Shown: one piece after another, positions 7,365 to 26,390 of the stretch
Layout of the letters: every line of letters starts with the position of its first letter
How positions within the stretch are numbered: the first letter of the stretch is position 1
Assembly: GCA_012838865.1 (NCBI GenBank)
Contig: DUOK01000233.1
Location: 3,512-67,511, forward strand
Origin: Bacteroidales bacterium
GTDB lineage: Bacteria > Bacteroidota > Bacteroidia > Bacteroidales > Marinilabiliaceae
Reading direction: 5' to 3'
Length of the DNA: 64,000 nucleotides
Program-made: the position numbers and the translations under genes
Notes under the pieces: model-generated
The model's input: the letters and a program-made list of their open reading frames with translations, nothing else
What the model was told of the DNA's origin: nothing
Database searches by the model: none

Positions 7365-8996
7365 CTATACATAACGAATGGGCGGAAGTTCTCCCCCGTC
7401 GCCACCCAGCGCAACGACCTGCCCTCTTTCATCCAGAACAAAACGCAGGCCGGCCAACAATTCGGCCTGTTGCCAGAGTTCCTGAAGCGTGGGCATCCAA
7501 ATTTTTTCCTCTGCCACCGCTAAAGACAGGCGCTCAAGGGCAGCCTTGGCCCCAGGCATAACATGCCCCTTGTTGTCGGCAAAAAGGCGGCCCGATTTAC
7601 GCCGGTCGGTATCGGCCAAATAGGTGTGCGCCAAACAAACTCCGGCTTCACCCATCAATACATTCAGGTTGTCCTGCGAAAAAGTAGCCGCAAAATCATG
7701 CACCTCAACGGTCTGGAAAAGCCAAAACCGCTGCCCACCCAAACCGACTTCAAACAAAATGGGTGTCATTTTCTGCCATTCAGGCAATCGCAGTCTCCCA
7801 CTCCCGAAGAACACCACCCGCAGCAACTGTGCCAACAAGCGAAAGCTGCCTGCCAAAAGCCGCGGCCAAATGCGCCAGGATTGCCTCCAGGCTTTTTTGC
7901 GCAGCCAGGCAGCCAGTTGTTGATAACGCTTTTGGGCACGAACACCACAAAAAAACAGGTTGTAGCTGCGCAGCAATTCGAAAACCCCGGACTGGGAGAA
8001 CTGCTGCATTAAGGTTTTACGATAGGCGGACAAGGAAAAATGCTTCGGATTCAACTGATTGATTCGACCCGGCCCGGATTGCCCTGCATCGAGATAGTTC
8101 CACAACAAACGCACGCCGGCCCTCCGCATACCCCGTGCCCAATCGATCAGCTCTGGAGCAGCGGCCGGGATACGACTTAAATTATAGGGCTGAAACCCAT
8201 GGTCTATCCAGGTGGTCCAGGACCCGGATTCCGTCACAAAGCGATCAAAATCATCCTCCCACTCCGATCGACTTGCACGGGTCGATTGTGAGAGACTGTG
8301 GTAACACAGTTCATGACCATCCTTCGCCCAATCTCTCAACAAATCGGCCTGCCTTTCCATCGACACATTCCAGGGACGTTTACTGTGATGAAACAAAAAG
8401 ACCCCTTTGGTAATGTTTAAACCTAAGCAGCGCAGAAAACGACGTTGTCGCTCCAACAAAACCGGAGAATCGAAATCGCAATGATCGGAGATGTTGAGGA
8501 TGGCTGAAAAAGGAATTCGGGAACGACTGAATTCGGGAACTGCCGAGCGGGTGAATAAAAAAGTGCATACCCACTCGTTGCGGGCCGGGGAGCAAGTGCT
8601 GAGCAAGGGGTCGTCGTTGGCATCGTAATGCAGACGCGGTTGCTGCAGCGGATCGGCCAAAATCCAGGTCAACTCCTGCGCCTGACGAGGATCGTAGTGC
8701 CAGGTGCCGTGGGTTTCACCAGCCACCATGCGCCAGTCGCCTTCCAGTTCGAGTATTTTGGGCGACCAGCTCCCGGCCATGCGGACCTGCTCGGCATTTA
8801 CCCATTTGTAATCGAAATTTCGCCAACGCAGCACCCTGGCATCCAGCTTTATCTGCAAATGCAGTCGCAACCCGGCAGTGACCAATCCCTCAGGAAGCCG
8901 AATAACAAAGCGATGCCTATGGCCCTCCTGCTCCTGCCGGACCCTGACACGTGATGGCGCTACGCCGTCAATCTCCAAAGAATAACTATGTATCAA
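7365..8996 (-). CDS. hypothetical protein with a central polysaccharide-deacetylase (CE4/NodB)-like segment
   Basis: Coupled to the upstream gene by an ATGA overlap. SDHCDFD and GHELCYHS resemble NodB motifs 1 and 2. Confidence 0.5.
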   Translation of the reverse strand: MIHSYSLEIDGVAPSRVRVRQEQEGHRHRFVIRLPEGLVTAGLRLHLQIKLDARVLRWRNFDYKWVNAEQVRMAGSWSPKILELEGDWRMVAGETHGTWHYDPRQAQELTWILADPLQQPRLHYDANDDPLLSTCSPARNEWVCTFLFTRSAVPEFSRSRIPFSAILNISDHCDFDSPVLLERQRRFLRCLGLNITKGVFLFHHSKRPWNVSMERQADLLRDWAKDGHELCYHSLSQSTRASRSEWEDDFDRFVTESGSWTTWIDHGFQPYNLSRIPAAAPELIDWARGMRRAGVRLLWNYLDAGQSGPGRINQLNPKHFSLSAYRKTLMQQFSQSGVFELLRSYNLFFCGVRAQKRYQQLAAWLRKKAWRQSWRIWPRLLAGSFRLLAQLLRVVFFGSGRLRLPEWQKMTPILFEVGLGGQRFWLFQTVEVHDFAATFSQDNLNVLMGEAGVCLAHTYLADTDRRKSGRLFADNKGHVMPGAKAALERLSLAVAEEKIWMPTLQELWQQAELLAGLRFVLDERGQVVALGGDGGELPPIRYV

Positions 8997-10300
8997 AGAC
9001 CCTCAAATTTTCGTTCAAAACGCTTGAACTTTCCCATAAGCGTACGTTCCAGTACCGCTTCATTTTTAATCTCAAGTTCCGCTGCAAAATCCAAGGCCTG
9101 CAAACACAAACGTCGCAAGCGGTCCTTCTCCTCTGCAAGCAAAGGACGCTCGCTGGCCACCTGCACCACAAAACGCTCCGGAGCGATTTGCAAAACCTTA
9201 TACTCATTCACCACCTTGCAATACTCCGAAAAAGCTTTAAACACATACAAAAACAAGGTGTCTCCAGCCACCTTCTTGCCCGAAGGCAGCCAGGCCATCT
9301 CCTCCACCCTGCCCTGTAAATGCGTCAGCCACAGTTGCCCGTCCAGCTCCTCTAAGGCCGCCATATCTCCAATTTCGTAACGAATCAAGGGCGTCCCCTG
9401 ATTGTAGAGGGGAGTCAGCACCACCTTTCCCACCTCCCCCCGGGCACAGGGCCGATTCTGCTCATCCAGAATCTCAGTCAGCATGAGCTCGTTCGACAAT
9501 TTCCAGCGACCATTTCTTCCAAAACCTACAATACCTGCCTCCGAGGCCCCGTATTCATTGTACACCGGAACCCCGTATACCCGCTCCATAAGAGCCATCT
9601 CCTCGAGGCTGCACATTTCGGAAGTGACAATAACCGTCTGTAAGGTAGGCAGCAGGACTTTAAGGACCAGCCCCTTTTTATCCAAAAAATGCGCAAAAGT
9701 CACCAAGGGATAGGCATAACCGTAAATATAAACAAAGGGGCGTCGACGAAAAGCATCCAGCCAGGACTCGAGTACAGACTCCGACAAATCAATGGTATTG
9801 AAGCGGACCCGGTTGCTGAGCCGGTCCTTCAAGCCTTCGGTTATACGGCTGCGCCTGCTCAGGGGAAAACCGAAAAAGCGGGCCTGCAAATCGTTGAAGC
9901 CCACACCGGCCGACCGGTAGCGATCTTCCAACAAACGCCAGGTAAGGGCGTGACTGAGGTAGTCCAGTGCGTAAGCAAAAGGTTTGCCGGTCGACCCGCT
10001 GGTCGCCCGATGATAATACTTTGGGTAGGCATTCTGGTCGGGCACCCTTGTAATCGCATGTTCCCTAATCAGGCGCTTATTAAGTACGGGCAGCTCCTCC
10101 CACGAAGCAGGCCAATCCCCTATAAAATGACGGAAACTGGTATTGGCCTGGTAGTGGTACTCCAAAGCTGCCCATTTCTGCCGTTCCAGGTAGGCCGGAT
10201 CGTGCGCCTCCCGCTTATACTCCTTAAACAAACGTCCCGCTTCATTCACCGGAAACCCCGTCCATTTCAACAGTCTGAAAAAATCCATCACCAGGTCCAT
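8993..10300 (-). CDS. phenylacetate-CoA ligase family (CapK-like) adenylate-forming enzyme
   Basis: TSGSTGKP P-loop, YGASEAG, PLIRYEIGD, GRVEE. Confidence 0.85.
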   Translation of the reverse strand: MDLVMDFFRLLKWTGFPVNEAGRLFKEYKREAHDPAYLERQKWAALEYHYQANTSFRHFIGDWPASWEELPVLNKRLIREHAITRVPDQNAYPKYYHRATSGSTGKPFAYALDYLSHALTWRLLEDRYRSAGVGFNDLQARFFGFPLSRRSRITEGLKDRLSNRVRFNTIDLSESVLESWLDAFRRRPFVYIYGYAYPLVTFAHFLDKKGLVLKVLLPTLQTVIVTSEMCSLEEMALMERVYGVPVYNEYGASEAGIVGFGRNGRWKLSNELMLTEILDEQNRPCARGEVGKVVLTPLYNQGTPLIRYEIGDMAALEELDGQLWLTHLQGRVEEMAWLPSGKKVAGDTLFLYVFKAFSEYCKVVNEYKVLQIAPERFVVQVASERPLLAEEKDRLRRLCLQALDFAAELEIKNEAVLERTLMGKFKRFERKFEGL

Positions 10301-11361
10301 TTATAAGCATGCAACAAATCCAGCGATTGGGCCACCACAGCCTCCATCCGAAAGGGCTGCACCACCTTTTGAACACCTGTGCTCAAACGACGACAGAGTG
10401 CCTCATCGACCAGCAGACGCTCCATCGCAGTCACCAGTGCAGCTACATCTCTGGGTGCAATAAACAGCGCGCTCTCTCCTTCCTCAAAATACTCGGGCAG
10501 TGCACTGAACCGACTGATGAGGATGGGAACTCCGGCCATTCCGGCCTCCACCAAAACCCCGGGGAGTCCCTCCCCCGGATGAAAAGTGGGCAGGACCAAA
10601 AAATGATACGCAGCCAGCACTTCCTGCACTTTGCCAGGTTCCACCAAACCACAATATTTAATTCTTCCTCCTGATTCCCTCACCGCCTTCTGCAACAGCG
10701 GCTCATCCATCGGGTCCACCGGTCCGTACACGTCCAGCTGCACGCACCTGCCCGCAAGCAGCAAGCGGCCCACCGCCTCCAGCAAATCGTGGATCCCCTT
10801 GGTACGGGTTACCCGCGAAATAAAAACAATGCGTCCCTGTGCAGCCTCATTCAAGTCCCACCGCTGCCCACTGTCCCGACGGGGATTAAAAACCAGTTCC
10901 ACCTTCCGCAGTCCGCAAGCCTCTAAGCCTTGTTGCAGGGCCCGAGATTCGGCAAAAACACCATCCAGGCGGTTGAGACAGGCCACCATCCACCTGCGTC
11001 TCCAGGGCGACAAATCGTTTTGCAGTTGCTGGTGAAAAGACCCGCCCACCACATAAAGCACGCCCTTTTTAGTCCGCAAGGTCTGCATCAGCGCAAAAAT
11101 CGGCAACAGGTAGTAACGCCCGTACTTATTCAAAGAGAAGATGATCTGGTAACTGCCCCACATTTTGGCCAACAAACGCAGATTGTTGCGCCAGCGGGGC
11201 CCCTGCCGGGCAATGGTATCGAACCATTCCACCCCCTTAATGCCAGCTCCCTCAAAACCCGCTTTAAGACAGGAGTTCTTTACCCCATCGCCATTGTAAG
11301 GTGGCGCAAAAGGTCCGACAAACAGGATGTCTCCCGACGCTTTACGAGAGGATTTTCGCAT
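10288..11361 (-). CDS. GT4 family glycosyltransferase
   Basis: VGPFAPPYNGDG N-terminus, SRVTRTKG, EGLPGVLVEAGMAGVP. Start codon uncertain (11361 or 11388). Confidence 0.85.
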   Translation of the reverse strand: MRKSSRKASGDILFVGPFAPPYNGDGVKNSCLKAGFEGAGIKGVEWFDTIARQGPRWRNNLRLLAKMWGSYQIIFSLNKYGRYYLLPIFALMQTLRTKKGVLYVVGGSFHQQLQNDLSPWRRRWMVACLNRLDGVFAESRALQQGLEACGLRKVELVFNPRRDSGQRWDLNEAAQGRIVFISRVTRTKGIHDLLEAVGRLLLAGRCVQLDVYGPVDPMDEPLLQKAVRESGGRIKYCGLVEPGKVQEVLAAYHFLVLPTFHPGEGLPGVLVEAGMAGVPILISRFSALPEYFEEGESALFIAPRDVAALVTAMERLLVDEALCRRLSTGVQKVVQPFRMEAVVAQSLDLLHAYKWTW

Positions 11362-12438: not shown

Positions 12439-13557
12439 TTACAACAATTTAATAAGCGCTTCTTCAAAGGCCTCCAGGTGATAACGGTGCGACCAGTCCA
12501 TCGCCGCACGACACTTGTCGTAGTAATCCTGTGGCTGCGCCAGCAGTCCCTGAATGGCTTCAGCGACCTGGCCGGGATCGGCCGACACCAGCACCCCTCG
12601 CTCAGCGGTGTTGAGCATCTGACGCACGCACGATACTTCGGTGGTCAGTGGTAAACAAGCCCACCACATGGCCTCGGCCACCACCTTGGGCCAACCTTCC
12701 GAGCGCGACAAAAAAACCAGAAAATGAGCCGCACGGAAATATTCTTTCACCACTTCCGGTGCCTGCCGACCGTGAAAATGAACGACATCAACCAAGCCCT
12801 TTTCCGTGCAGAATTGCTCCAGGTCTGCCCGCTGGCGACCGTCCCCAAACAAATCAAGACGGACCTCCAGACCTCTGCCCCTCAGCAGCTCCACAACCTT
12901 AATGGCGGTCAGAGGCCCCTTATTCGGCGTGAGTGTCCCTACAAAAATCAAACGCAAGGGCAGCTCAGTTAACGAACGGGGCTCCAGGGGAAGGGCCTGG
13001 GTTTTGGAATAGGAAGCCGTAAAAAACGGACGGATGTTTCGACTCCTTTCGCCCCAATCGCCATAAACCATAACCCGCATGCGTCTCGACCAAAAGCGCG
13101 AACGCAAGAGCCGCTGTTGCAGTCGGTACGATCGGGGCTGACGACTGTTCCAGTCCCAGTTGTTGGCGTACTTGGCCGTTTTTCGGGTAAAAGGAAAAAA
13201 AACCTGTACCAGAAGTCCCAACAAACCCATGTTGGAAGGACAGCGCAAATGAATGTGACTGGCCCATGCCATGCCCTGCAAAAGACGAAAAAGCACAAGG
13301 GGTAATTTCGAAAGAGAACTCAGCACCTCCTTTTTGTTGGTAAAACGCAGGGCTGGAACCGCGACAAAATCAAGATTGGGATGCGTATAAAAAGTCTCCA
13401 AGGCATCGGGTGGCTCCTGCGACAAAGGAGCTATGATGCGGACCCGGTCGACGTGGCGCAACCAAAGATTCATTTCACGCACATAAGGCGTGTACCCCCC
13501 ATAGCGTCCCTCGCTGTGCACATGCACCACCGGCGAAACAATCAGAAATTTAAGCAT
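12439..13557 (-). CDS. GT4 family glycosyltransferase
   Basis: VGTLTPNKG, SEGWPKVVAEAMWWACLP. Start set at MLKFLIV, overlapping the end of the upstream gene. Confidence 0.88.
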   Translation of the reverse strand: MLKFLIVSPVVHVHSEGRYGGYTPYVREMNLWLRHVDRVRIIAPLSQEPPDALETFYTHPNLDFVAVPALRFTNKKEVLSSLSKLPLVLFRLLQGMAWASHIHLRCPSNMGLLGLLVQVFFPFTRKTAKYANNWDWNSRQPRSYRLQQRLLRSRFWSRRMRVMVYGDWGERSRNIRPFFTASYSKTQALPLEPRSLTELPLRLIFVGTLTPNKGPLTAIKVVELLRGRGLEVRLDLFGDGRQRADLEQFCTEKGLVDVVHFHGRQAPEVVKEYFRAAHFLVFLSRSEGWPKVVAEAMWWACLPLTTEVSCVRQMLNTAERGVLVSADPGQVAEAIQGLLAQPQDYYDKCRAAMDWSHRYHLEAFEEALIKLL

Positions 13558-14941
13558 CTTGACCTTCCCCGACCTCCTCCTTCCCACGTGAAGCCACCCA
13601 CATAAAGGCCGCTCCAAACACCACGCCGGGCAAAGCCAGGCGCATGGCCGCATGAAACATGGTGAACATACTCAACAAATAAAAAGCAACAAAGAAACAA
13701 CGCGTCATGGGATCGCGATAGTGAAAAAAGAAGTACAGCGGCAAGCCCAACATGCCCACCAGCATAAAGATCAAGCCTACAATCCCGTGCTCCGACAAAA
13801 GACGGGCAAATTCGGTGTGGGCCGCAGCTTCCGAGCCATAATACCGCGCCCGGTAAATGGCCCCCATTCCGTAACCCACCCCAAAACCGGGATGCTCGGT
13901 AAAGACTTTAATGTCGGCGGCAATGATCTTGTCTCTGCCCGTGAGCAAACTCCCTCCCGAACTGCGTTCGCCGGTCAAGGCCTCCGTTGTACTCAGGCCC
14001 TGATACCGATACAACAAATAATTATTAGTCAGGTGATTCGCAAACACGAACACCCCCACAAAAAATGCCAGTCCCACCAGCACCCAGGGCAAGGACTGCA
14101 CCAATCGCCTACGGAACCCGTAGTACGAAAAGTAGAGCACCGCAACAGCTCCCAAAAGAGCCAGTACACTGCCCAGAACGCCGCCCCGCGAAAAAGTCAG
14201 CAAGGCCCGGAGCACCAAATAAAAAAGCATCAGCCAGTCGAGCCACTTAAAAGGTGTTATGGCCGCCCCATTGATTTTATAGAGCAAGGCCAGCAGAATG
14301 AACCAGCCCAGCACCGTACTCACCTGATTGGGTCCGAAACCACCCGAGGCTGCAGCGCTGGATTGCACACTGGTGAACTCGATGGTGGCCAGACTGGCTA
14401 CGGTACTTAGGGCCATGATAACGGCAAAAGCCGGCAGAAAGGCCCATTTCAACTGGTGAAAAAAAGTGGAAGCGGGCAGGCGGCGCCCAAAAAAATACAA
14501 GCCGGAGGCGATGAGACTCAAGGGCCCGGAGATGTTGAACATGACCATGTCCAGTCTGCGTGCCGGATCGCTGTGCTCGGTAAGAAAGATGGCCGGCAGC
14601 AACAACACCAGCAAAAAGATAAAAATCCAGGGAAAATACCTGCGACCTCCTATCACCAGTCCCGTGACCAACAAAATAATGCTTGCGTACTTGCCCAACT
14701 CCCAGGAATAGGGCGCCCCGGCCATGCGGTACAGCATTTCGTAGCCCACCAGGTAAAGGGCATAAAAACCCGCCCGGGCATCGCTGTCGAGCCGGTACAC
14801 CACATCCAGCCAAAAAAGCAAAAAGAAAAGCGGATAGGCCAGCGCAACAATTCCCGGCGCATACTTTAACATGGCCCCCAAAAACAAATGGAGGACAATC
14901 AAGGCCACATAGCCGCTTTTATAATCCAACAGTTTAATCAC
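13550..14941 (-). CDS. O-antigen polymerase/ligase family membrane protein (Wzy/WaaL-like)
   Basis: About 11-12 hydrophobic segments, GFGPNQVS, TFSRGG, TGRDKI, GVGYG, AHTEFARLLSEHGIVG. Confidence 0.82.
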   Translation of the reverse strand: MIKLLDYKSGYVALIVLHLFLGAMLKYAPGIVALAYPLFFLLFWLDVVYRLDSDARAGFYALYLVGYEMLYRMAGAPYSWELGKYASIILLVTGLVIGGRRYFPWIFIFLLVLLLPAIFLTEHSDPARRLDMVMFNISGPLSLIASGLYFFGRRLPASTFFHQLKWAFLPAFAVIMALSTVASLATIEFTSVQSSAAASGGFGPNQVSTVLGWFILLALLYKINGAAITPFKWLDWLMLFYLVLRALLTFSRGGVLGSVLALLGAVAVLYFSYYGFRRRLVQSLPWVLVGLAFFVGVFVFANHLTNNYLLYRYQGLSTTEALTGERSSGGSLLTGRDKIIAADIKVFTEHPGFGVGYGMGAIYRARYYGSEAAAHTEFARLLSEHGIVGLIFMLVGMLGLPLYFFFHYRDPMTRCFFVAFYLLSMFTMFHAAMRLALPGVVFGAAFMWVASRGKEEVGEGQDA

Positions 14942-16080
14942 TTCAAGGAACGATAAAATTCAATATTCTTAGCAACAAGTCCCTCCAGTCCAAACATTGC
15001 CCGGGCATCTTGCTGGCCCTGTAAGGACAACTCCTTCATCCGCTCGGGATGCTCAAAGGCATAAATAATCTGCTCCGCAATATCCAGAGGTTCGTAGGGA
15101 TTACACAAGAGCCCGTTTTCTTTGTGGCGAATGGTTTCCGGACCGGGTCCCTCACGGGTAAAAAGTACCGCTTTGCCCATAAACATAGCTTCAGGGGCCA
15201 CCAGTCCCTGAGTTTCCATGTGCGAAGGAAAAACGCAAAGCTCTGCCTGTTCGTAACGAGCAGGAATTTCGGACAAAGGAAGGGGCCCATGAAAATGAAG
15301 GTGCTGCAGTATTTCCTCAGAAAATTGTTCCTTCAGCCACGCTGTGTAGGAACGCTTATCGGGAAAAAACCAATCGCGCCCGTACACATCGAGCTGCACC
15401 TCCGGAAACCGCGGGATAATGAGCTCAAGGGCTTGAATCAACTGACGAATGCCCTTTTTCTCGCAAACGGTACCGGCAAAGACGAGGCGATGCTTTTGAG
15501 CAAGATCGAGATCGGCCTGCCGAAACAAGTCCCCGTCGATGGGGTAGCGAATGGTGGCAAGCGGTCGCCCTTCGGTCGACAAGTACTTAGCTGTGTGTCG
15601 TTTTACATATTCCGAGACCGCAACAAAGGCATCGGCCCGGGCGTAGGAGCGGCGCTCCAAAAAGCCCTTCCAGGCGTCGATGGGCCGCTGTTCCGATTCG
15701 GCAAAAAAGTGATGGCCCCCATGCATACGTACCACCTTGACGTAAGGGGTTTTGGCGGGCAACATAAACATCAGAGCTTCGGGCGCTTCAACCACATCAA
15801 GGGGTCGACTTTCGTGCATCTCCCTCAACTTCCGCCTTATCCGCCAGGCATTCTCGGCAAAGCTGGCCTTTTTAAAAAGACGAGGTGCCGGCAAGCGGTA
15901 AATGTCCACCCCCCGATCCTGAAAATGCTCCTCCTGTGGACCTTTGCCAATGCCTACCACCGAGACACGGTGACCGGCACGCACCAGGGCGCGGGCAATG
16001 GTTTGAATAAAACTGCCGATGCCCCCGGTTCCCCACAAGGGGTATTCGTAGGACAAATAGCAAATGTTTAGTGCTTCCAT
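14938..16080 (-). CDS. GT4 family glycosyltransferase
   Basis: GGIGSFI, GTVCEKKG, FPSHMETQGLVAPEAMFMGKAV. Confidence 0.9.
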   Translation of the reverse strand: MEALNICYLSYEYPLWGTGGIGSFIQTIARALVRAGHRVSVVGIGKGPQEEHFQDRGVDIYRLPAPRLFKKASFAENAWRIRRKLREMHESRPLDVVEAPEALMFMLPAKTPYVKVVRMHGGHHFFAESEQRPIDAWKGFLERRSYARADAFVAVSEYVKRHTAKYLSTEGRPLATIRYPIDGDLFRQADLDLAQKHRLVFAGTVCEKKGIRQLIQALELIIPRFPEVQLDVYGRDWFFPDKRSYTAWLKEQFSEEILQHLHFHGPLPLSEIPARYEQAELCVFPSHMETQGLVAPEAMFMGKAVLFTREGPGPETIRHKENGLLCNPYEPLDIAEQIIYAFEHPERMKELSLQGQQDARAMFGLEGLVAKNIEFYRSLK

Positions 16081-16098: not shown

Positions 16099-17484
16099 TT
16101 AAACAGTAGTCATGATCCGGGCAATCCTTTCGGAAGCCTCCTCCAGTGGATGCAGCGCCACCACCCTAAACCAGCGGGAGCGGACTTCGGCCGACGGCAG
16201 GGGGCCGTACAAGGCACGCCGCACACAGTCGGCGATCTCCGCCCTGCTGTTGAGCCAAACCACACAATCGCGGGTAGGCATGCTCCTGAAATGCTGGTAT
16301 TGATTATTGACAACGGCCGACCAATGGGTAATGGCGGGCTGATCGTAATTGATGTAAATGGCCGGTTTGTCGTACACCGCAAAGTCGTGTGCCATGGTGG
16401 ACCCCACATTGATTACTGCGTCGGCGTGCAAGGCCACATTAACCAAAAGCCGGATGTCGTCCAGCGTCGGCACATTAAAATCCCAGCCCCCACGGTATTT
16501 TTTCCAAAGCGGATCGGAGACTTTAATGAGGTCGGGATAGCGTTCCACTACAGGTTGAAAGCGGCCCGACAAATCTACGGGACAGCGGCGAAGAAGAATC
16601 TGGGGCCTTTCCGCTTCCGGCATCTGCATCAGCGCCTCTGCCAGGTCGGACAAATACAGTTCGTCGCAGGGAAAAGTCATATCGTTGCCCGAAAAACACA
16701 GCACCTTTTTATTGGGGTCGAGGCCCCATTCGGCAAAAAAATCCCCCCGCTCCTGACGCAGCGAAGGGTTAAAATAGAACTCAAACTGGGGTGTTCCGGT
16801 GACAAAGAGACGGGTCTCGGCAATCTCGGGATAGTAAGTCGCCATCTCCTGCTTCATAAATTCGGACCACAGCACATAACGATCGGTCCGCACAAGCAAA
16901 CGCGCCTTGGGCAGATTGTCCCAGGAATAGACAGCCCCCAGGGTTGGAATCTCCAGCGAACGCGCAGCCTCTACCACCACCGAACCGTCGAGCGAGCGCT
17001 GGTGCGTACTGAACAGCACATCGGGTTGCAGCTGGCGCAGCACGCTTTGCTGCTCCTTAAAATAGGCGGTACTGCGCAAGTGTTTTCGGTAACGCTTTTC
17101 CAATCGCACTATGCGCCGGTAACTCAAAGAGGCCCACCAGCCCACCAAGGCCGCCAGTGCAAAAAAGAGGCGGGTTAACCAGGCGTATTGTTTGCGGGTC
17201 CAGTTGATCATGATGGTGGAATTATCCACCTTGCGGGTGTTGTAGCGCAAGCGCGCATAGGTGATGCTCTCCTTGAGCAATTTCCCCCAAAACGCTTCGC
17301 GATAAGTCGTCATGGCTACATGCCTGATCTCCTTTTGGTGAACTTGCTGCACCTCCTGCACCACCTCGGGGGGCAAAACGGTCAACAATATAAGCTCGGC
17401 ATCCTTAGGAAGCCGGTCGATGAGACTGCTGTACAAATAATTGCGCAGGCCTACCCCGTCGGGTACCAAAAAACAAATCCGCAT
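16099..17484 (-). CDS. uncharacterised GT-B glycosyltransferase-like protein, candidate nonulosonate transferase
   Basis: Directly downstream of the CMP-nonulosonate synthetase. Motifs SWDNLPK, TGTPQFE, LLRRCP, INVGSTMAHDF. The function is an inference. Confidence 0.5.
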   Translation of the reverse strand: MRICFLVPDGVGLRNYLYSSLIDRLPKDAELILLTVLPPEVVQEVQQVHQKEIRHVAMTTYREAFWGKLLKESITYARLRYNTRKVDNSTIMINWTRKQYAWLTRLFFALAALVGWWASLSYRRIVRLEKRYRKHLRSTAYFKEQQSVLRQLQPDVLFSTHQRSLDGSVVVEAARSLEIPTLGAVYSWDNLPKARLLVRTDRYVLWSEFMKQEMATYYPEIAETRLFVTGTPQFEFYFNPSLRQERGDFFAEWGLDPNKKVLCFSGNDMTFPCDELYLSDLAEALMQMPEAERPQILLRRCPVDLSGRFQPVVERYPDLIKVSDPLWKKYRGGWDFNVPTLDDIRLLVNVALHADAVINVGSTMAHDFAVYDKPAIYINYDQPAITHWSAVVNNQYQHFRSMPTRDCVVWLNSRAEIADCVRRALYGPLPSAEVRSRWFRVVALHPLEEASERIARIMTTV

Positions 17485-17506: not shown

Positions 17507-18676
17507 TTAAGTCCTTCCGGCCAAAATGGCCTCCACATACTCCCGCACCACGCCTTCACCCCCTTTTTTGGTGAAAACCCGAATACCGGGAATGGCTTTT
17601 ACCTTGTCTACCGCATCGACGGGACAGGCCGGGAAACCCACCCGGGAAAGTAATTCGAGGCAATTCACATCGTCGCCGATGTAGGCCACCTGCGACAGAT
17701 CCAAACCCTCCTTTTCACAAATATCCAGGGCTGCCGCCAGCTTCCCGCCGTGCTTTTTGCCCTGGTAAAGATGATCGAGTCCCAGTTTTTTAAAGCGGCG
17801 GTCGACCATCCGCGTATCCTCCGAAGTCACGATGCCGGTCTTAATGCCCTGGGCCTTCAAAAGCTGCAAGCCCATCCCGTCGCGGGTATTGAACTTCTTG
17901 AGCTCATCGCCCTCCTCGGAGTAGTACATGCCTGCATCGGTCAGCACCCCATCCACATCGGTCAGAAAGAGCCGTATTTGAGCATAATCGGGCAAAAGTT
18001 GCGGTTGATGCTTGCGCATCAACTGCTCGGCCATCAGCCAATCGTCCTCCTCATCCATCTCAATGGCCGTATATTCAGGCATTTCAAACAAACCAATATG
18101 CCCCGAAATGCGCAGTCCCGAAGCTCGAATGGCGGCAATGGTACTCACATAAAAGGCACCGTTCTCCATCCACTCACCATCAAAGTCCTGCCTCCGGGGA
18201 CGCTGTCTGTAATCGTAGTTTTTAGATTGACCGTCGGCCGTCCAAAAAAAACGTTTGAAACGCACACAGGAAAGCAGACTGTCGAAGCCGCCTTCGTAAA
18301 AGTGTTGCAGGGCCCCGGAGAAATCTTCGCGACGGGTAAGCGGCGAGGTGGCCTGGGCAAGGACAAACACATCCTTGTCGGTCCACCTGCTACCGTCGCG
18401 GTCCAGATAGTCAAACATGGCTGTTTCGGTGGACGCGGTATCGCTGGCACTTTCAGCAGAGCGGTCGAACAAGAGCACCTTACTGAAGGCAAAACTTTCC
18501 ACCACCTCGCGAATTTGGGGACTGTCGGTAGCCACCACCACGTGGTCCACTTCCGGCGCTTCTTCCAAAGCTTTCAGATTCCAATAAATGAGGGGACGAC
18601 CGCAAAAATTGCGGATGTTTTTCAGGGGAATGGATTTACTGCCTCCACGTACGGGTACAAATGCGACTACTGCCAT
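17507..18676 (-). CDS. neuA: acylneuraminate cytidylyltransferase fused to a KdsC-type HAD phosphatase
   Basis: N-terminus VPVRGGSKSIPLKN, QATSPL, ENGAFY. C-terminus FLTDVDGVLTDAG, KFNTRDG, YIGDD. Confidence 0.9.
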   Translation of the reverse strand: MAVVAFVPVRGGSKSIPLKNIRNFCGRPLIYWNLKALEEAPEVDHVVVATDSPQIREVVESFAFSKVLLFDRSAESASDTASTETAMFDYLDRDGSRWTDKDVFVLAQATSPLTRREDFSGALQHFYEGGFDSLLSCVRFKRFFWTADGQSKNYDYRQRPRRQDFDGEWMENGAFYVSTIAAIRASGLRISGHIGLFEMPEYTAIEMDEEDDWLMAEQLMRKHQPQLLPDYAQIRLFLTDVDGVLTDAGMYYSEEGDELKKFNTRDGMGLQLLKAQGIKTGIVTSEDTRMVDRRFKKLGLDHLYQGKKHGGKLAAALDICEKEGLDLSQVAYIGDDVNCLELLSRVGFPACPVDAVDKVKAIPGIRVFTKKGGEGVVREYVEAILAGRT

Positions 18677-19542
18677 TTCAATTGGTTCTTTTTAAGTTTG
18701 TTACGTTGCACTTCTTCTATGGCAAGAATGTCGTCCGTTTTGTAAGTAAGGGCTTTGAAAACGGCACGACAATCGCGGGTCAGTCGCCGCAGTCCGTCGG
18801 GCTCCAAAGAAGCCGCATGATCGGTACCCTTCCAGGTCCTGTCGAGGGTATAATGCCGCTCTATCCACTCGGCACCCAGGGTCATGGCCGCCACATCCAC
18901 GGCAATTCCCAAATGATGGCCCGAAAACCCGATGGCCTTCACCCGGTGTCCAAACTGTTCCTTAAGTCGATGAATTTCGTAGAGACAAACATCCTCAAAG
19001 GGAACCGGATAGCCCGAAGTACAGCTGTAAAGTACCAGGTCCTTGCTGCGACCGGCCGCCTCAAACAACTGCACCACCTGCTCCTCCTCCTCACGTCGGG
19101 TCATGCCAAACGAAACGTGCACTTCTCCGCCATAGTTTTCACAAAGGTACAAAAGCAGGGCCTTATTCTGGTTGCAGGCCGAGGGAATCTTTAACAGGGC
19201 TGGATTCAGCGATGCAATCTCCCGCGCCGAACTCACATCCCATACCGAAGTGGAATACTCCAGTCCATACTCCTCACACCAGGCTTTCAACTGCCGGTGT
19301 TGGTCCACATCAAACTCCAAAAACTCCCGGTGCTCACCATAGGTCTTCCCGTAAGCATTAATGGGATTGGGGTGGGGCGAATGGTATTCCTCCTCACTCA
19401 ACAACTCCCGGTTGTTGCGCTTCTGAAACTTGACCACATCCACTTTGCAAAAAATGGCTGCCGTAACAATCATTTCACGGGCAATTTCCATACTCCCCTT
19501 GTGGTTGCAGCCTATTTCAGCGATAATCTTGGGTGCCTGCAT
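18667..19542 (-). CDS. neuB: NeuB family nonulosonate(-9-phosphate) synthase, short form without SAF domain
   Basis: IAEIGCNHKG, VKFQKR, KIPSA, SCTSGYP, GFSGHHLG, ERHYTLDRTWKGTDHAASLEP. Ends at 291 aa. Confidence 0.92.
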   Translation of the reverse strand: MQAPKIIAEIGCNHKGSMEIAREMIVTAAIFCKVDVVKFQKRNNRELLSEEEYHSPHPNPINAYGKTYGEHREFLEFDVDQHRQLKAWCEEYGLEYSTSVWDVSSAREIASLNPALLKIPSACNQNKALLLYLCENYGGEVHVSFGMTRREEEEQVVQLFEAAGRSKDLVLYSCTSGYPVPFEDVCLYEIHRLKEQFGHRVKAIGFSGHHLGIAVDVAAMTLGAEWIERHYTLDRTWKGTDHAASLEPDGLRRLTRDCRAVFKALTYKTDDILAIEEVQRNKLKKNQLKWQ

Positions 19543-19578
19543 AAGTCAAATATTTATTCGTTTATAATGGTTTCTTTT

Positions 19579-20574
19579 TTACAGCCAGCGCCATTTGCGA
19601 CCGGCACGCAACAAAAGTCGGTTGAGCGGAAGCAGGCGGCGCAGGACTGCGGCACGAAAGGACTTTTGCGGCAGGGGCCATTCAAGCGGACCGGACGGAG
19701 CAAGGGCCCGGGCATGCCAGTCGAGGGCCGCCTGGGGCACCGTATTGCCCAAATGATAAGCCCACAAGTCGGGCGTGGAAACCCGCAGGTAACCAGCTTT
19801 TTCTGCCGCCACATCGAGGTACTCGTGCTCATAGCCGTTTTTGAATACCCAGGGCACTTTATCCTGGTTAAATTGCTGCACCACCTCGCGCCGAAAGGTA
19901 GCCAGGGCATGTACCGCCCCCAAAACCACGGTATGCCCATCCCGCTGCAACACGTACTGCTGCTGCCGCCAGCTAAGACCACGCTTGATGCCGGGGCGAC
20001 TGTACAAACCCGACTCCGGGGAGTGCCCCAGTCCCTGCTCAAACAAGTCCACGTCCTCATCGGACAGCACCTTGCCGGTCTGCCGGGCCGCCCACACCAA
20101 ATGACTGTTGTAAAAATAAGTCAGATGCGCAGCGGGAAAGGGACTCACCATCCCTGCGCGCGGGAAACGTTGAAACACGCGGGCCACCGCCTGCTCCCAA
20201 CCCGGCAAAAACAAAAAATCGGCATCGGCCAGGGTCAGATAATCTTCCTGAGCAGCACGCGCCTCGGCCAGCAAGGGATCCAGTTTGCCCCGGTTCTCGG
20301 CACAGAGCACGTACTTGTCGATGAGTCCCGCCTGCACAAAGGACTCCGCCACCGCAGTTGCCTCGGCACAGGAATGGTTGTTGATGAGAGTAATGGCGCT
20401 TTGCTCCCGATCGATTGAGCGCGTCAGAGAATCGAGACAATAACGCAACACCTCCGGCTGTCCTTTAAAGTAAGGCTCCTCTACATTGGGAATCCAAAAG
20501 GGCAGAATGATCCGATGCACCTTGTGCGACAAGGGCTTCAGTACACTTTTCAAAGGATGCTCGCCTTCACGCAT
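19579..20574 (-). CDS. GT-A fold (GT2-like) glycosyltransferase
   Basis: LINNHSC, YLTLADADFLF (DxD motif), in-operon position. Confidence 0.7.
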   Translation of the reverse strand: MREGEHPLKSVLKPLSHKVHRIILPFWIPNVEEPYFKGQPEVLRYCLDSLTRSIDREQSAITLINNHSCAEATAVAESFVQAGLIDKYVLCAENRGKLDPLLAEARAAQEDYLTLADADFLFLPGWEQAVARVFQRFPRAGMVSPFPAAHLTYFYNSHLVWAARQTGKVLSDEDVDLFEQGLGHSPESGLYSRPGIKRGLSWRQQQYVLQRDGHTVVLGAVHALATFRREVVQQFNQDKVPWVFKNGYEHEYLDVAAEKAGYLRVSTPDLWAYHLGNTVPQAALDWHARALAPSGPLEWPLPQKSFRAAVLRRLLPLNRLLLRAGRKWRWL

Positions 20575-22440: not shown

Positions 22441-23550
22441 TTAGACTTCAAAATGATTGATGCAGTGGGCCACGTAGTGAATTTCCTCATCGCTGTGGCA
22501 GGGACTGATGGGGAGACTCAGTTCTTCCCTGTGCAACTGCTCGGTAAAGGGCAGGGACAGTTCCTTCCATTGGGCATAGGCCTCCTGCTTATGGGGCGGC
22601 AGCGGATAGTGAATCATGGTCTGGATGCCCGCCTTTCGCAGGTAGGCCTGCAATGCGTCCCGCCTCGGATGCAGGATGGGGAAAAGATGATAAACATGTT
22701 GCCCGTAGTCGGCTTCATGGGGCAACACCAGGTCGGGCCGTTTTATTTCCTGCCGATAAAGCGCCGCCAACTCGCGACGACGCTCGTTTTCTTTATCGAG
22801 GCCCCTCAGACGTATCCGTAAAAAGGCGGCCTGCAACTCGTCGATGCGCATATTGAAGCCCTGGAAGCGATTGTAATACTTTTGTTGCGAACCGTAATTG
22901 CGCAAGGTAGCCACAGCCTCTGCAAAACCGGCGTCACTGGTGGTAACCGCACCCGCCTCGCCCAGGGCTCCCAGGTTTTTACCCGGGTAGAAACTGTGCC
23001 CGGCGGCCAGGGACAAGTTGCCGGCACAACGACCATCCCGCAGGCGCGCACCATGCGCCTGGGCCGCATCTTCAAAGAGCAGCAAATCCTGCTCCCAGGC
23101 CAGTCTTTGCAAAGCCTCCATATCGGCCAGCTGTCCGTACAAATGCACCGCCAGGATGGCCCGGGTACGGGGGCCAACTGCCTCAGTCGCTGCGTGCACA
23201 TCTATGTTGTAGGTAGCCCGGTCCGGCTCTACCAAAACCGGCCTCAGACCGCTTTGCGTGATGGCCAAAATGGAGGCAATGTAAGTATTGGCCGGCACCA
23301 GCACCTCATCGCCTTCGGCCAGTTTTCCCAGCACTTTGGCCGCCTCAAAAATCAAACGCAGGGCATCCAATCCATTGCTGACCCCCACGGCGTGCTTCGT
23401 TCCACAAAAGCGGGCGTACTCCTCTTCAAAAGCCCGGGTTTCCTCGCCCAGCACATACCAACCGCTTTCTAAAAAGCGACGGGTTGCTGCCTGCATTTCT
23501 GTCGTATAAGGGGCGTTGACTGCCTTTAAATCCAAAAAACTTACCTGCAT
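22441..23550 (-). CDS. DegT/DnrJ family aminotransferase, FdtB/QdtB-like (dTDP-3-amino-3,6-dideoxyhexose)
   Basis: SFLDLK, GVSNGLDAL, EDAAQAHGA, SFYPGKNLGALGEAG, LRNYGS, IDELQAAFL. Linked to FdtA-like cupins. Confidence 0.9.
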   Translation of the reverse strand: MQVSFLDLKAVNAPYTTEMQAATRRFLESGWYVLGEETRAFEEEYARFCGTKHAVGVSNGLDALRLIFEAAKVLGKLAEGDEVLVPANTYIASILAITQSGLRPVLVEPDRATYNIDVHAATEAVGPRTRAILAVHLYGQLADMEALQRLAWEQDLLLFEDAAQAHGARLRDGRCAGNLSLAAGHSFYPGKNLGALGEAGAVTTSDAGFAEAVATLRNYGSQQKYYNRFQGFNMRIDELQAAFLRIRLRGLDKENERRRELAALYRQEIKRPDLVLPHEADYGQHVYHLFPILHPRRDALQAYLRKAGIQTMIHYPLPPHKQEAYAQWKELSLPFTEQLHREELSLPISPCHSDEEIHYVAHCINHFEV

Positions 23551-24485
23551 AGGTCCTTTCTATAGAAATCGTGACAAAATCCTGCCGCACCAAAACCCTC
23601 CTTAAAAGCAGCCAGGCCCTCATTCAGGCGCTGCCCCTCGGCCTCGGTAGAAGTGCCAAAACTGAAGTAGCGCTTATCTCTCCCGTAAAGTGCCGAGATC
23701 TGTCCCACCAAAAACTCGGGCGCACACAAACGCCTGCCTTCCTCATTGAAATGAAAATATTGGGTATGCACAAAATCGTTGTCGATAAAGGTCCATGCGC
23801 CCCCCAGGAACTGCGCTCCCCGATGCACCCCAAAGGTCTTGATCTGCCCCGGGAAGCGTTGCTGCAAAAGCTGGACTTCGGGGAGACTGTGCACGGCAGT
23901 GGCATCGTACTTGTTTTGAAGGTTGTGGTTGACCAGCTCCAGGAAGGCCGCCTCATCGCCATTGACCTGCAGCCGCAAGTCGTTTCGGGCACTCTTATTG
24001 AGCCGGTAGCGCTTATCGCGCGCAAAACCAGGCGTATTCTGCCAATCGAAGCAGAAGGACAAGTCGCGCCGCCAAAGTTGGTAATCGCGCTTCCACAAAA
24101 CCCAGGCATCGGCTGCACTAAAGTGGCGGTCGAACACAAAGGGCTTTTGCTTGTAACAGATTCGGGAAAAACCCTGCTCGGCCAACCAGCTTTCCATTTC
24201 GGCAAAAAGTGCATCCAGTTCGGCCGCCCCAAAACGAGGGGCCAGCACCCAGCCCCCATAAGTCAGTCCCTGATGCGAATGTAATACCTCGTCCCTCCGG
24301 TTGGCGGGCAAAACAGCCTTGAGCTTATCCCCCGAAAAGGCCAGGAGACTGTAATCCTCAAAGCGATCGGCGTGGTAGTCCATAAAGCCCCGCTCAAAAA
24401 GGAAGACCCCGTTCCAGGCACTTTTTACAAAAGCATCCCACAGTGGAGCGTCTGCGGAGCTGTATTTGCGTATCTCAAAACTCAT
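23541..24485 (-). CDS. FemAB-like tandem-GNAT acyl/aminoacyl transferase
   Basis: WDAFV...FLFERGFMDYH, SHQGLTYGG, YRLNKS, FSFGTST...GLAAFKEGFG. Confidence 0.75.
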   Translation of the reverse strand: MSFEIRKYSSADAPLWDAFVKSAWNGVFLFERGFMDYHADRFEDYSLLAFSGDKLKAVLPANRRDEVLHSHQGLTYGGWVLAPRFGAAELDALFAEMESWLAEQGFSRICYKQKPFVFDRHFSAADAWVLWKRDYQLWRRDLSFCFDWQNTPGFARDKRYRLNKSARNDLRLQVNGDEAAFLELVNHNLQNKYDATAVHSLPEVQLLQQRFPGQIKTFGVHRGAQFLGGAWTFIDNDFVHTQYFHFNEEGRRLCAPEFLVGQISALYGRDKRYFSFGTSTEAEGQRLNEGLAAFKEGFGAAGFCHDFYRKDLCR

Positions 24486-24487
24486 TA

Positions 24488-24973
24488 TCAATCTTCTTCA
24501 GGAATTGTGCGACCAAGAATGCGGGCGGGACAACCGCCTGCTACACAGTTGGGGGGAAGGTCGCTGTTGACAAAACTCTTGGGCTGCACCACTACCCCCT
24601 CGCCAATGGTGACCCCGGCAATGACCATGCTGCCGGAACCGATCCAGCAATCGCTGCCAATGGTAATGGCCTGCTCGCGAATCGGGAAAAGACGAAGCAT
24701 GGGGGGACTGGCGGTGGGACCGGTATCTGCGATGATGTGGCAAAAGTGACCGATGCTGCAGCGCTCACCGATGCGCAAAGGAGCCGCAAAACCATTGAGA
24801 ATGCTGTGCTTACCGATGCGTGTACCGGCCCCCACTTCGAGGGGCCAACGGGGACTCCCAAAGAGGGTGCTGCGCTGCCCGATCGCCACGCCATCGCCCA
24901 AATTTACGTTGTTGAGCGAGGCGCTTTCGTCGGCCTGCACCCCATGTCCGGTAATGATGTTGGCGTGTATCAT
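24488..24973 (-). CDS. hexapeptide-repeat (LbH) acyltransferase
   Basis: ITIGSDCWIGSGSMVIAGVTIGEGVVV...VAGGCPAR. Confidence 0.8.
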   Translation of the reverse strand: MIHANIITGHGVQADESASLNNVNLGDGVAIGQRSTLFGSPRWPLEVGAGTRIGKHSILNGFAAPLRIGERCSIGHFCHIIADTGPTASPPMLRLFPIREQAITIGSDCWIGSGSMVIAGVTIGEGVVVQPKSFVNSDLPPNCVAGGCPARILGRTIPEED

Positions 24974-25479
24974 TCTTTCTCGGGAAGCTTAGTTTGAAGT
25001 TCTTCCGGTTTGAGTTGGCGCAGCAAGCGGGCCGGGTTGCCGCCCACTACACTGAAATCGGGTACCGACTGGTCTACATAACTGTTCGAGGCTACAATGC
25101 AGTAGCGCCCAATACTTACCCCGGGGGCCAAAACACAGCCCGAACCAATCCAACTGTGGTCGCCTATTCGGATGGGTGCTGCGCCTTTCGAAAAATAAGC
25201 ATTCACCGCCGAACCGGGGGCCAGGTTCCAATGCGATACCAGCACATTGTGCTGAGCAATGGAAACATGCTCCCCTATCTCAATATCGGCCTGGGTCCCG
25301 TCGAGGGTCACATACATCCCAAAAATGGTGCCGCTGCCAATTTTTACCACATGCTCGGGACTGCCTTCAATGCTGCACTCCTTGGCTATTTTCACCTCAT
25401 CCCCAAAGTGTACGTTGTTGACGCGACTGCCGGGATGAATGAAGACATTTTTTCCAAAACTCAAATTCGCTAGCATCAT
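24970..25479 (-). CDS. hexapeptide-repeat (LbH) acyltransferase
   Basis: IRIGDHSWIGSGCVLAPGVSIGRYCIVASNS...VVGGNPAR. Start at the ATGA overlap (25479). Confidence 0.82.
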   Translation of the reverse strand: MMLANLSFGKNVFIHPGSRVNNVHFGDEVKIAKECSIEGSPEHVVKIGSGTIFGMYVTLDGTQADIEIGEHVSIAQHNVLVSHWNLAPGSAVNAYFSKGAAPIRIGDHSWIGSGCVLAPGVSIGRYCIVASNSYVDQSVPDFSVVGGNPARLLRQLKPEELQTKLPEKE

Positions 25480-26390
25480 GCCAAAAAATCCTTTATCAGA
25501 GTAAACAAATAATCGACGTGGCCCTCCTCCATGCTTTGATGGCAGGGCAGGTAAAAGACTTCCTCTCCGTAAAACACGCTGCACTCGACCCCCTGCTGCT
25601 GCAAGTAAACCTTGAGGGCCGACAAGTCCCTGCCGGGCGCGCCAAACAAAAAGGCACCGGGGACCTCCCCGGCTGCCGGCTCAAAGCGGGCCGGCCAGCC
25701 GGCTGCACCAAAGCGCTCCAAAAAGGCAGCGTACAAGTGCCGGCGCCGGCGCTTAATGTCCTCCCCCTGCCCACTATAATGCGCGTAACAGGCCTTTAAG
25801 TAGCGCACGGCCGAAGCACTCAGCGAGGCATCTGCCAACTCCCGCCCGCCCGCATAAAGGAGGCCCCCCGCCTGCATGGGAAAGGTTTTGGCCAGACTGT
25901 AAAAGGCATAGTCGCCCTGACTGCCTGCACGCCGGCCGTCCAGCGCGGAGTAATAACTGTAAGCACAGTCCTCAATCAAGGGCAGTTGGTAAGCACGCAG
26001 GGCCGCCATATCGCGCCGCACAAATCCAAATTCGTGGTTGACCAGAATGGCGGCGGTGGCACTGCTGTATTGCCGGCTCCACCGGCAGTACAGCTCAATA
26101 GTGCGGGTAACGCAGCCACTCAGGTAACGGTTGTTGCTGGTGGTCAGCACCCAGACTTCGGCCTCAGGGTCCAGTTGCAAATCCTCGAGCACCATGGCCA
26201 GGGCACGTGTGGCGCTGGAACAGACATTCAGCAAGCGCCCTTCTTCCTCCAGCACCGGAAAGACATCCCCCTCATAAGCAGCCCACAGACCTTGATTGCG
26301 CAGCAAGGCCTCGCCGTTGAAGGGCGAAAGATAAAGGGGAGCCTGCCGGAAAGCCTCGGGGTTTTTAATGTAGCCGTTCAGAAAGTCCAC
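25476..26390 (-). CDS. short DegT-like PLP-dependent protein
   Basis: NHEFG, IEDCAYS, YSLAKTFPMQAGG (Lys at the PLP position), LPCHQ. About 70 aa shorter than typical. GTG start. Confidence 0.65.
   Translation of the reverse strand: MDFLNGYIKNPEAFRQAPLYLSPFNGEALLRNQGLWAAYEGDVFPVLEEEGRLLNVCSSATRALAMVLEDLQLDPEAEVWVLTTSNNRYLSGCVTRTIELYCRWSRQYSSATAAILVNHEFGFVRRDMAALRAYQLPLIEDCAYSYYSALDGRRAGSQGDYAFYSLAKTFPMQAGGLLYAGGRELADASLSASAVRYLKACYAHYSGQGEDIKRRRRHLYAAFLERFGAAGWPARFEPAAGEVPGAFLFGAPGRDLSALKVYLQQQGVECSVFYGEEVFYLPCHQSMEEGHVDYLFTLIKDFLA

Follow-up and report, generated by a model that had tools for sequence, protein, structure and literature searches.

The window, a 64,000-nt stretch of DNA from a Bacteroidales bacterium (contig DUOK01000233.1), carries on its minus strand a single intact open reading frame (ORF) at 16099..17484, which starts with ATG and translates into a 461-residue protein (P0001, here called the target). 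This protein is a candidate transferase of nonulosonic acids that are activated with cytidine monophosphate (CMP), in this genome presumably 2-keto-3-deoxynononic acid (Kdn). Its gene starts 22 nt past the stop of a gene encoding a NeuA-HAD fusion (17507..18676, minus), in which Pfam matches to CTP_transf_3 and HAD indicate a CMP-nonulosonate synthetase joined to a haloacid dehalogenase (HAD) domain of the Kdn-9-phosphate (Kdn-9-P) phosphatase type, and it ends 18 nt ahead of a gene for a family 4 glycosyltransferase (GT4) recognised by Pfam (14938..16080, minus), with all of them on one strand. Upstream of NeuA-HAD lie a 291-residue NeuB-family synthase without a SAF domain, which Pfam and NCBIfam scans mark as a presumed Kdn-9-P synthase (18667..19542, minus), and, directly upstream of neuB, a GT2-like protein (19579..20574, minus). 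Downstream, the GT4 is followed by a Wzy_C-family membrane protein of the polymerase or ligase type (13550..14941, minus). The original prediction, which gave no strand, had placed a 461-residue protein directly after neuA-HAD, and this arrangement is confirmed.

The upstream genes suggest which donor the target is likely to be supplied with. The NeuB of the window is the sole NeuB of the genome. The top NCBIfam match of NeuA-HAD is the KDN-9-P phosphatase model NF058599 (163 bits), and the closest solved structure to its HAD domain is PDB 3E81 (E 9.6e-38, with KdsC behind at 2.5e-32), a deposit named 'acylneuraminate cytidylyltransferase' that we take to be BT1713, the Kdn-9-P phosphatase of Bacteroides thetaiotaomicron. 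The sole Epimerase_2 gene of the window encodes WecB (502 bits) and not a hydrolysing NeuC. Because the NeuB lacks SAF, the HAD is of the Kdn-9-P-phosphatase type and a hydrolysing NeuC is absent from the window, Kdn is, by these family matches, the most likely product of NeuB and NeuA-HAD in this genome. The genome is 97% complete and encodes one NeuB and one member of the target family, and NeuA is the only cytidylyltransferase among the operon genes scanned, which comprise all but the small ORF at 19554-20060. Genome-wide searches with PF07922 (GT52), PF06002 (GT42), PF11477 (GT80) and PF07388 (GT38) came back empty, a negative that is weak for three of the four models because the control genomes gave no match to them either; PF04464 and PF05159 likewise found no match in the genome. 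At the locus itself, none of the Pfam-scanned neighbours resembles GT29, GT38, GT42, GT52 or GT80, in line with what had been noted from the sequence beforehand. With one NeuB, one target-family protein and no match to the classical families, the target is, provided that the genome makes any use of Kdn, the sole visible candidate for its transfer.

The target belongs to a large family that has so far escaped annotation. No Pfam or NCBIfam model claims the protein: its best Pfam match, to Glyco_transf_4, reaches 19.6 bits against a cut-off of 28.5, Glycos_transf_1, which a GT4 member would be expected to match, gives no match at all, and the Pfam scan found no match to PF07388, PF06002, PF07922, PF11477 or PF05159. 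More than 1400 homologues were retrieved, with E-values down to 0, and all are unnamed or generically named; at this gene the window shares 99% identity with Geofilum rhodophaeum. A profile search of 1.84 billion representatives yielded 4187 clusters at E<=1e-3 and 527 at E<=1e-30. The ESM Atlas offers automatic generic names only, such as 'MGDG synthase family' or 'UDP-glycosyltransferase'. In a pattern scan that took a single genome for each GTDB species we counted at least 590 encoding loci, mostly in Flavobacteriaceae and Marinilabiliaceae, with one in Sulfurovum. Some relatives are fused, either to a GT4 (P0220), to a GT2 (P0255) or as tandem doubles (P0213 and P0245).

The AlphaFold2 model of the target (predicted local distance difference test 91.7, predicted template modelling score 0.90) has a GT-B fold with two Rossmann-like halves, as the original prediction had supposed, and its N-terminal domain contains a helical insertion of ~90 residues (about 62-152). 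This insertion was considered as a possible membrane anchor and rejected as such: its highest 19-residue Kyte-Doolittle mean, 1.42 at residues 102-121, lies below the transmembrane threshold, and this peak is not conserved in homologues. At most, a peripheral association with the membrane is possible. In an all-against-all structural search, for which 50 rows of matches were listed, the model matched NeuC and the 2-epimerases of uridine diphosphate (UDP)-N-acetylglucosamine (UDP-GlcNAc) with Z 22-23 (best: NeuC 5ZLR, Z 23.2), followed by TarL with cytidine diphosphate (CDP)-ribitol (Z 20.4), TagF (Z 18.2), WaaA (Z 17.2), a CMP-bound capsule polymerase (Z 16.3) and the polysialyltransferase 5WC6 (Z 15.6). 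KpsC and WbbB are not among these 50 matches. Foldseek against the PDB returned generic GT-B matches only (template modelling score ~0.5), with MshA, the 2-epimerases and other UDP-sugar enzymes at the top, and it cannot tell the type of donor since its matches are generic. On the evidence of the predicted model, structure alone does not separate the candidate relatives of the target.

Sequence profiles discriminate better. PDB sequence searches with the target and with alignments of the closer family (A1) and of its divergent members (A3) gave only a weak GT28 match (E 0.0075). Profile comparisons were made with hhalign between A3 and five families, including GT4 and GT1-like controls from the same loci. 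The T. forsythia-type BFO_1060 profile, built from seven true members, came first (98.0%, E 1.7e-13 over 269 columns; 94.4% with A1), ahead of Epimerase_2 (96.8%, E 2.6e-10, 273 columns) and of a TagB-like PF04464 alignment (96.7%, E 3.8e-10, 202 columns), which was derived from one PF04464 locus (151 Bacteroidia genomes, E<=1e-30) and its homologue search and which aligned with the C-terminal domain only. The neighbouring GT4 family (38%, E 3.4e-4, 183 columns) and GT1-like family (0.6%, E 0.091, 45 columns) scored far lower, and across comparisons of the target family with that GT4 family the probabilities span 0.9-38%. Single-sequence scans of 33 divergent members agree with this order, as NF046086, the NCBIfam model of the BFO_1060 family, was touched by 29 of them (below threshold, best 1.9e-20), TIGR04396 by 13 and PF04464 by 11 (best 3.1e-10), and an epimerase model (PF02350 or TIGR03568) by a single one at ~1e-3 to 1e-4. 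By these profiles the closest detectable relatives of the target are the Tannerella forsythia transferases of pseudaminic acid (Pse) and legionaminic acid (Leg), and then the TagB/TagF-type CDP-glycerol transferases. The original prediction had suggested a fold like that of CDP-glycerophosphotransferases or KpsS. The first half of this suggestion finds support, because TagB/TagF-type enzymes are among the closest detectable relatives, and the second does not: PF05159 gave no signal, and neither KpsC nor WbbB is among the 50 structural matches listed, although a relationship may exist nonetheless.

Kinship with TagB and TagF raises the possibility that the target is itself a phosphotransferase of this type that adds a phospho-alcohol, for example glycerol-phosphate from CDP-glycerol. 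Glyphos_transf is its nearest Pfam family by profile, TarL and TagF rank high among the structural matches, and one Kdn locus outside the family (L105, described below) does contain a true PF04464 protein. Against this, the target has no PF04464 match at E<=0.01 (the gathering score is 22.1 bits), its homology to TagB-like proteins is confined to the C-terminal domain, the histidine conserved in the latter falls on V303/D304, and the BFO_1060 family is closer by three orders of magnitude in E-value. Furthermore, no CDP-alcohol cytidylyltransferase was found among the scanned operon genes or in the 28 largest neighbour clusters, 19 of which were family-scanned. We therefore regard a phospho-alcohol transferase as quite unlikely.

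The residues that are conserved across the family are concentrated in a few loops. Eight residues are invariant in members that share 21-33% identity with the target (S187, W188, D189, W206, G230, R299, N359 and S362), and eleven more are near-invariant in the same sequences (G10, N190, P232, Q233, F234, P302, D343, T363, P374, H398 and R435). The four motifs listed in the original prediction are all present, with coordinates checked by translation. The SWDNLPK loop (residues 187-193, 16906..16926, minus) contains the invariant S187, W188 and D189, the last of which we propose as the general base, and GTPQFE (residues 230-235, 16780..16797, minus) forms a linker between the domains with an invariant G230 and near-invariant P232, Q233 and F234. 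GSTMAHD (residues 361-367, 16384..16404, minus), recognised in alignments, is the presumed S-T loop that binds phosphate and ribose in the C-terminal Rossmann domain; N359 and S362 are invariant here and T363 nearly so. In addition, an H161-Q162-R163 loop after beta-4 of the N-terminal domain (16996..17004, minus) is invariant in the close family. In the model the conserved loop residues (187-190, 206, 230-234, 299-302 and 359-363) follow the C-terminal ends of beta-strands, the region from which the inter-domain active site of GT-B enzymes is formed, and this topology suggests that the conserved loops form the active site of the target. The target contains no DxD at all and no conserved E-x7-E, since the two matches to the latter (residues 44 and 275) are unconserved in homologues and wrongly placed, in agreement with the earlier statement that GT2 and GT4 signatures are lacking.

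The remaining motif, RRCP (residues 299-302, 16579..16590, minus), is a variant of the (K/R)xHP motif. This motif is common to the sialyltransferase families GT29, GT38, GT42, GT52 and GT80 and to the Kdo (3-deoxy-D-manno-octulosonate) transferases GT99 and GT107, and its Lys or Arg hydrogen-bonds the cytosine, on which the Pro stacks (PMC12887879). In 51 sequences of the target family R299 and P302 are invariant, and the His position is occupied by Cys (44), Ala (5) or Ser (2); the cytosine-binding part of the motif is therefore conserved, and the histidine dispensable in this family.

Similarity to NeuC raises a different reading, namely that the target is a NeuC- or PseG-like nucleotide-sugar hydrolase or epimerase acting in the biosynthesis or tailoring of the nonulosonate. 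Such an enzyme would also account for co-occurrence with neuB and neuA, and it would fit both the superposition, the best overall with any enzyme, and a profile similarity to Epimerase_2 (PF02350) that is remote but real. The catalytic residues tell otherwise, as neither the GDR nor the H-x-E-G motif of the 2-epimerases is kept in the target, where Q162 occupies the place of the catalytic Asp of GDR and a gap that of the Glu, and this loss argues against an epimerase or hydrolase role. The target loci, moreover, have a genuine NeuC or WecB of their own, the Flavobacteriaceae loci holding a bona fide NeuC beside the target, and only the one divergent member mentioned above touches an epimerase model. 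To our knowledge, the Kdn route needs no NeuC- or PseG-like step. Taken together, we consider this reading very improbable.

Genomic context ties the family to nonulosonate genes, as the original prediction had led one to expect. We assembled species loci with flanks of up to 10 kb (n=80) and located NeuB by tblastn. In 71 of them the 10 kb upstream of the target include a NeuB-family gene on its strand, and in 66-69 NeuA is likewise found upstream on that strand; L051 and L052 also have nonulosonate genes, which brings the count to 73 of 80, and most of the others are truncated upstream. Three loci with no NeuB nearby (L003, L005 and L006) come from genomes that encode a SAF-less NeuB elsewhere (3/3 checked). 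Among 401 Bacteroidia genomes, NeuB is present in all 24 that bear the family, as compared with 231 in the whole sample. The loci share a conserved block of target, GT4, GT1-like, GT4 and Wzy_C, in which a GT4 follows the target in 77 of 80 cases and a Wzy_C protein is found downstream in 65, and the GT2-like gene upstream of neuB holds the same position in 46.

Some features of the association depend less on common descent than these counts do, namely the two pathway types, the divergent members, the Sulfurovum locus and the grouping in trees. The family accompanies two types of pathway: a Kdn type in Marinilabiliaceae, and NeuC, SAF-containing NeuB and NeuA in Flavobacteriaceae and Sulfurovum, with the Flavobacteriaceae NeuC scoring above the equivalog cut-off of TIGR03568. 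The association extends to divergent members, 8 of whose 12 loci contain NeuB, NeuA or NeuC. Five of the eight closest loci (L001-L008) have Kdn genes alongside, and the remaining three are those with a SAF-less NeuB elsewhere; in the tree, the targets of seven of the eight form one clade (support 0.90), with that of L006 nearest to it. In Alkalitalea saponilacus the GT4 groups with those of Kdn loci and the target with targets of the NeuCBA type, a discordance that, as a single event, is suggestive only. Two positions separate the groups: F271 (16672-16674), inside an invariant S-G-x-D-x-T-x-P-x-D loop, and N394 (16303-16305) are fixed in the eight closest, Kdn-linked targets and are Ser and Tyr in 71 of 72 NeuCBA-linked sequences. 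Judging from this alignment pattern, F271 and N394 may be determinants of donor specificity.

A Sulfurovum sp. metagenome-assembled genome from the Campylobacterota (L013) encodes NeuB, NeuC, NeuA, an AsnB-like protein, the target, GT4, GT1-like, GT4 and Wzy_C, as in Flavobacteriaceae, which suggests either that the entire locus moved from one phylum to another or that the binning is wrong. Two or three paralogues occur inside one nonulosonate locus in L116 (6941-9745), L117 (9299-12040 and 17080-18471) and L121 (6676-8175 and 11766-13193), and in L117 a BFO_1060-like paralogue lies between the target and NeuB. In ~20 loci a membrane-bound O-acyltransferase (MBOAT) and an unannotated protein of ~290 residues are encoded between the nonulosonate genes and the target (L024:5038-8237, L042:7671-9988), and the pair may O-acylate the nonulosonate or the glycan.

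We also approached the association from the other side, by seeking loci with NeuB and NeuA-HAD in 300 genomes of the order. Seven other Kdn-type loci were found, and the target family is present only in that of Breznakibacter. In L105, which lacks the family, a GT52 protein (PF07922, 86 bits) and then the true Glyphos_transf protein directly follow neuB (L105:10394-12648). In L106, also without the family, a 290-residue protein beside neuB (10401-11273) has a weak MptE/Maf-like match (24 bits, below cut-off), and L107 and L108 have an ORF at the same position that is known by its matching size and place alone; near the neuB of L103 and L104 no obvious transferase candidate was seen. From lineage to lineage, therefore, different nonulosonate transferases, recognised or suspected, occupy the place beside the Kdn genes, and those of L105 and L106-L108 are candidate alternative Kdn transferases. 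In the window this place is filled by the target, and the family as such is not specifically a Kdn enzyme.

A block of genes that is inherited together could nevertheless link an enzyme to a pathway in which it plays no part, and the target might thus be an ordinary GT-B enzyme that uses a nucleoside diphosphate (NDP)-sugar and builds a neutral or amino sugar into a conserved glycan core. The strong synteny of the locus, which makes the co-occurrence partly phylogenetic, speaks for this, as do the UDP-sugar enzymes at the top of the Foldseek results and the precedent of SpsB discussed below. However, the neighbouring GT4 and GT1-like families fail to match by profile, E-x7-E is lacking, and the C-terminal domain is homologous to the CDP-glycerol-binding domains of TagB-like proteins and retains the cytosine-contacting Arg and Pro. 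The association, moreover, holds in divergent members, in Sulfurovum and with both types of pathway, and Kdn loci that lack the family have GT52 or Maf-like genes in its place. On balance an NDP-sugar enzyme appears unlikely.

We thus favour, as a reasonably probable assignment drawn from sequence comparison and gene order, a CMP-nonulosonate transferase, here using CMP-Kdn, that represents a new and unmodelled branch of the TagB-like/BFO_1060 superfamily. This is the activity named in the original prediction, and it is supported by the unmodelled family, its linkage to nonulosonate genes and its relation to BFO_1060. Several observations weigh against the assignment. Epimerase_2 is about as near to the target profile as the TagB-like alignment, and the best structural matches are NeuC and the 2-epimerases. 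The HP-motif histidine, which is important in characterised sialyltransferases, is absent from the target family. Identity to BFO_1060 is ~18-22% in the aligned part, and against the NF046086 model the target scores 36.8 bits, over residues 199-271 only, when the curated cut-off is 200. The co-occurrence counts are inflated by shared ancestry and are not independent events, because syntenic Flavobacteriaceae make up the majority of the 80 loci, and the tie to Kdn specifically is weak, given that only one of the seven other Kdn-type loci contains the family. Our literature search found neither a characterised member of the target family nor a bacterial Kdn-transferase. Finally, Bacillus subtilis SpsB is a TagB-domain protein encoded beside CMP-Leg genes and has both the DEG and HP motifs, but spore Leg was unchanged on its deletion (PMC7439481); by analogy, it is a cautionary precedent against guilt by association.

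The scheme that we propose, in its donor, acceptor, catalytic residues and stereochemistry alike, is predictive. The target would be a cytoplasmic, membrane-peripheral GT-B enzyme that transfers the nonulosonate from its CMP conjugate to a growing undecaprenyl-phosphate-linked surface glycan. The SAF-less NeuB would join phosphoenolpyruvate and mannose-6-phosphate to give Kdn-9-P, which the HAD half of the fusion protein would dephosphorylate and the NeuA half convert to CMP-Kdn, as their family matches suggest. The C-terminal Rossmann domain of the target may then grip the CMP moiety through R299, P302 and the N359/S362/T363 loop, with Asp189 of the S-W-D-N loop activating the acceptor hydroxyl and CMP departing. 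The adjacent conserved GT4 would either make the acceptor sugar or extend the chain from the nonulosonate, and the ABC exporter and Wzy_C protein of the operon would export the glycan and polymerise or ligate it.

By family scans of its genes, the long minus-strand operon that contains the target amounts to a complete glycan assembly line of the undecaprenyl-phosphate type. In the order of transcription it begins with an ATP-binding cassette (ABC) exporter, FdtA, two DegT-type aminotransferase ORFs, two hexapeptide acetyltransferases and a 316-residue ORF, continues with three GT2 proteins, the SAF-less NeuB, NeuA-HAD, the target, the GT4, Wzy_C and three more GT4-like proteins, and ends with two unassigned proteins, WecB, a GT4, a gene on the opposite strand (3638-4963), a PglC-like Bac_transf, a GT1-like protein and a further DegT aminotransferase. 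The opposite-strand ORF at 3638-4963 has no Pfam match, and neither has the 316-residue ORF (23541-24491, minus). In a 304-residue ORF (25476-26390, minus) only ~80 residues match the DegT aminotransferase model, so that the gene is possibly truncated or was mis-called. A 543-residue protein without Pfam match and a 435-residue protein with a weak AMP-binding match only are encoded at 7365-8996 and 8993-10300 (minus), and in 17 of the 80 loci a protein of the 435-residue type again closes the conserved block. The initiating phosphoglycosyl transferase of the window is the small PglC-like Bac_transf (193 residues, 2884-3465), and 49 Flavobacteriaceae loci have instead a large WbaP-like Bac_transf of ~464 residues (L010:18075-19469, L042:16807-18237), after which comes an opposite-strand membrane protein with an Lnb domain.

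Transfer is the step of bacterial nonulosonic-acid glycobiology about which least is known: CMP-Kdn, CMP-Leg, CMP-Pse or the CMP conjugate of N-acetylneuraminic acid (CMP-Neu5Ac) is made by many genomes, few of the attaching enzymes are known, and we know of no bacterial enzyme that attaches Kdn. If the proposed activity is correct, hundreds of genomes of Flavobacteriaceae and Marinilabiliaceae would have their transfer step assigned, chemo-enzymatic sialylation or Kdn-ylation would gain a new scaffold, and the HP histidine, supposed to be universal in CMP-sugar transferases, would prove dispensable. A wider proposal, which to us is evenly balanced, is that the target family constitutes a distinct CAZy-level family of CMP-nonulosonate transferases without the HP histidine, widespread in Bacteroidota (at least 590 species), of which the Marinilabiliaceae branch would be the first bacterial Kdn-transferase and the Flavobacteriaceae branch a new sialic- or legionaminic-acid transferase paired with, and sometimes fused to, a GT4. 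Should the proposed activity be wrong, what stands is a large, conserved and unannotated GT-B family tied to nonulosonate loci.

Comparison with known systems places the target closest to the BFO_1060 family, which includes Tanf_01245 and TFUB4_00887, whose knock-outs lose the terminal Pse or Leg derivative of the T. forsythia O-glycan, which complementation restores (PMC5420450). Both the target and these proteins are GT-B, TagB-like proteins of ~450 residues whose genes lie immediately downstream of those for CMP-nonulosonates in Bacteroidota, and their S-x-x-N, W-S, TG..F.., (K/R)x.P and S-T motifs are collinear. Two of these correspond to the HP motif (K-R-H-P) and D/E-D/E-G motif (S-E-G-N) described for the BFO_1060 family (Tomek et al. 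2017). In the alignment, S-W-D-N of the target pairs with S-E-G-N, V-W-S with H-W-S, T-G-T-P-Q-F-E-F-Y with T-G-A-T-G-F-D-R-Y, R-R-C-P-V-D with K-R-H-P-N-E and G-S-T-M-A-H-D with E-S-T-T-A-x-E, so that the target retains the Arg, Pro, Ser and Asn, lacks the His and has its acidic residue one position away. The setting beside CMP-nonulosonate biosynthesis genes is shared as well. The two differ in that the N-terminal 150 residues do not align, in the helical insertion of the target, and in the donor, which for the target would be Kdn or a NeuCBA product and not a Pse or Leg derivative.

With TagB, TagF and TarL (PF04464, Glyphos_transf), the target shares a homologous C-terminal nucleotide-binding domain with an S-S/S-T loop and a D-F...K-P-x-I-Y...D stretch. 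TGxCRFD of the TagB-like proteins aligns with the GTPQFE region and Y-S-S-V-F-F-D with GSTMAHD; the donors of these enzymes release CMP, and the structural Z-scores are 18-20. By contrast, their N-terminal domain is not detectably homologous to that of the target, its H-G histidine could not be placed, their Y-P-H-H aligns with C-P-V-D, where the conserved His after Pro is missing, and the target would move a sugar and not a phospho-alcohol. Likeness to the established transferases of CMP-linked ulosonic acids, namely the GT-B bacterial sialyltransferases (GT38 polysialyltransferases, GT52 Lst/NST and GT80 PmST1) and the retaining ulosonic-acid enzymes (GT99, GT107, GT118 KpsS1 and GT140 KrkA), lies in the GT-B-type fold, the presumed type of donor and the cytosine motif of the (K/R)xHP type, of which the target retains the Arg and Pro and lacks the His. 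Finally, the fusion of a GT4 with the target in P0220 recalls the two-domain capsule polymerases that alternate hexose and sialic acid.

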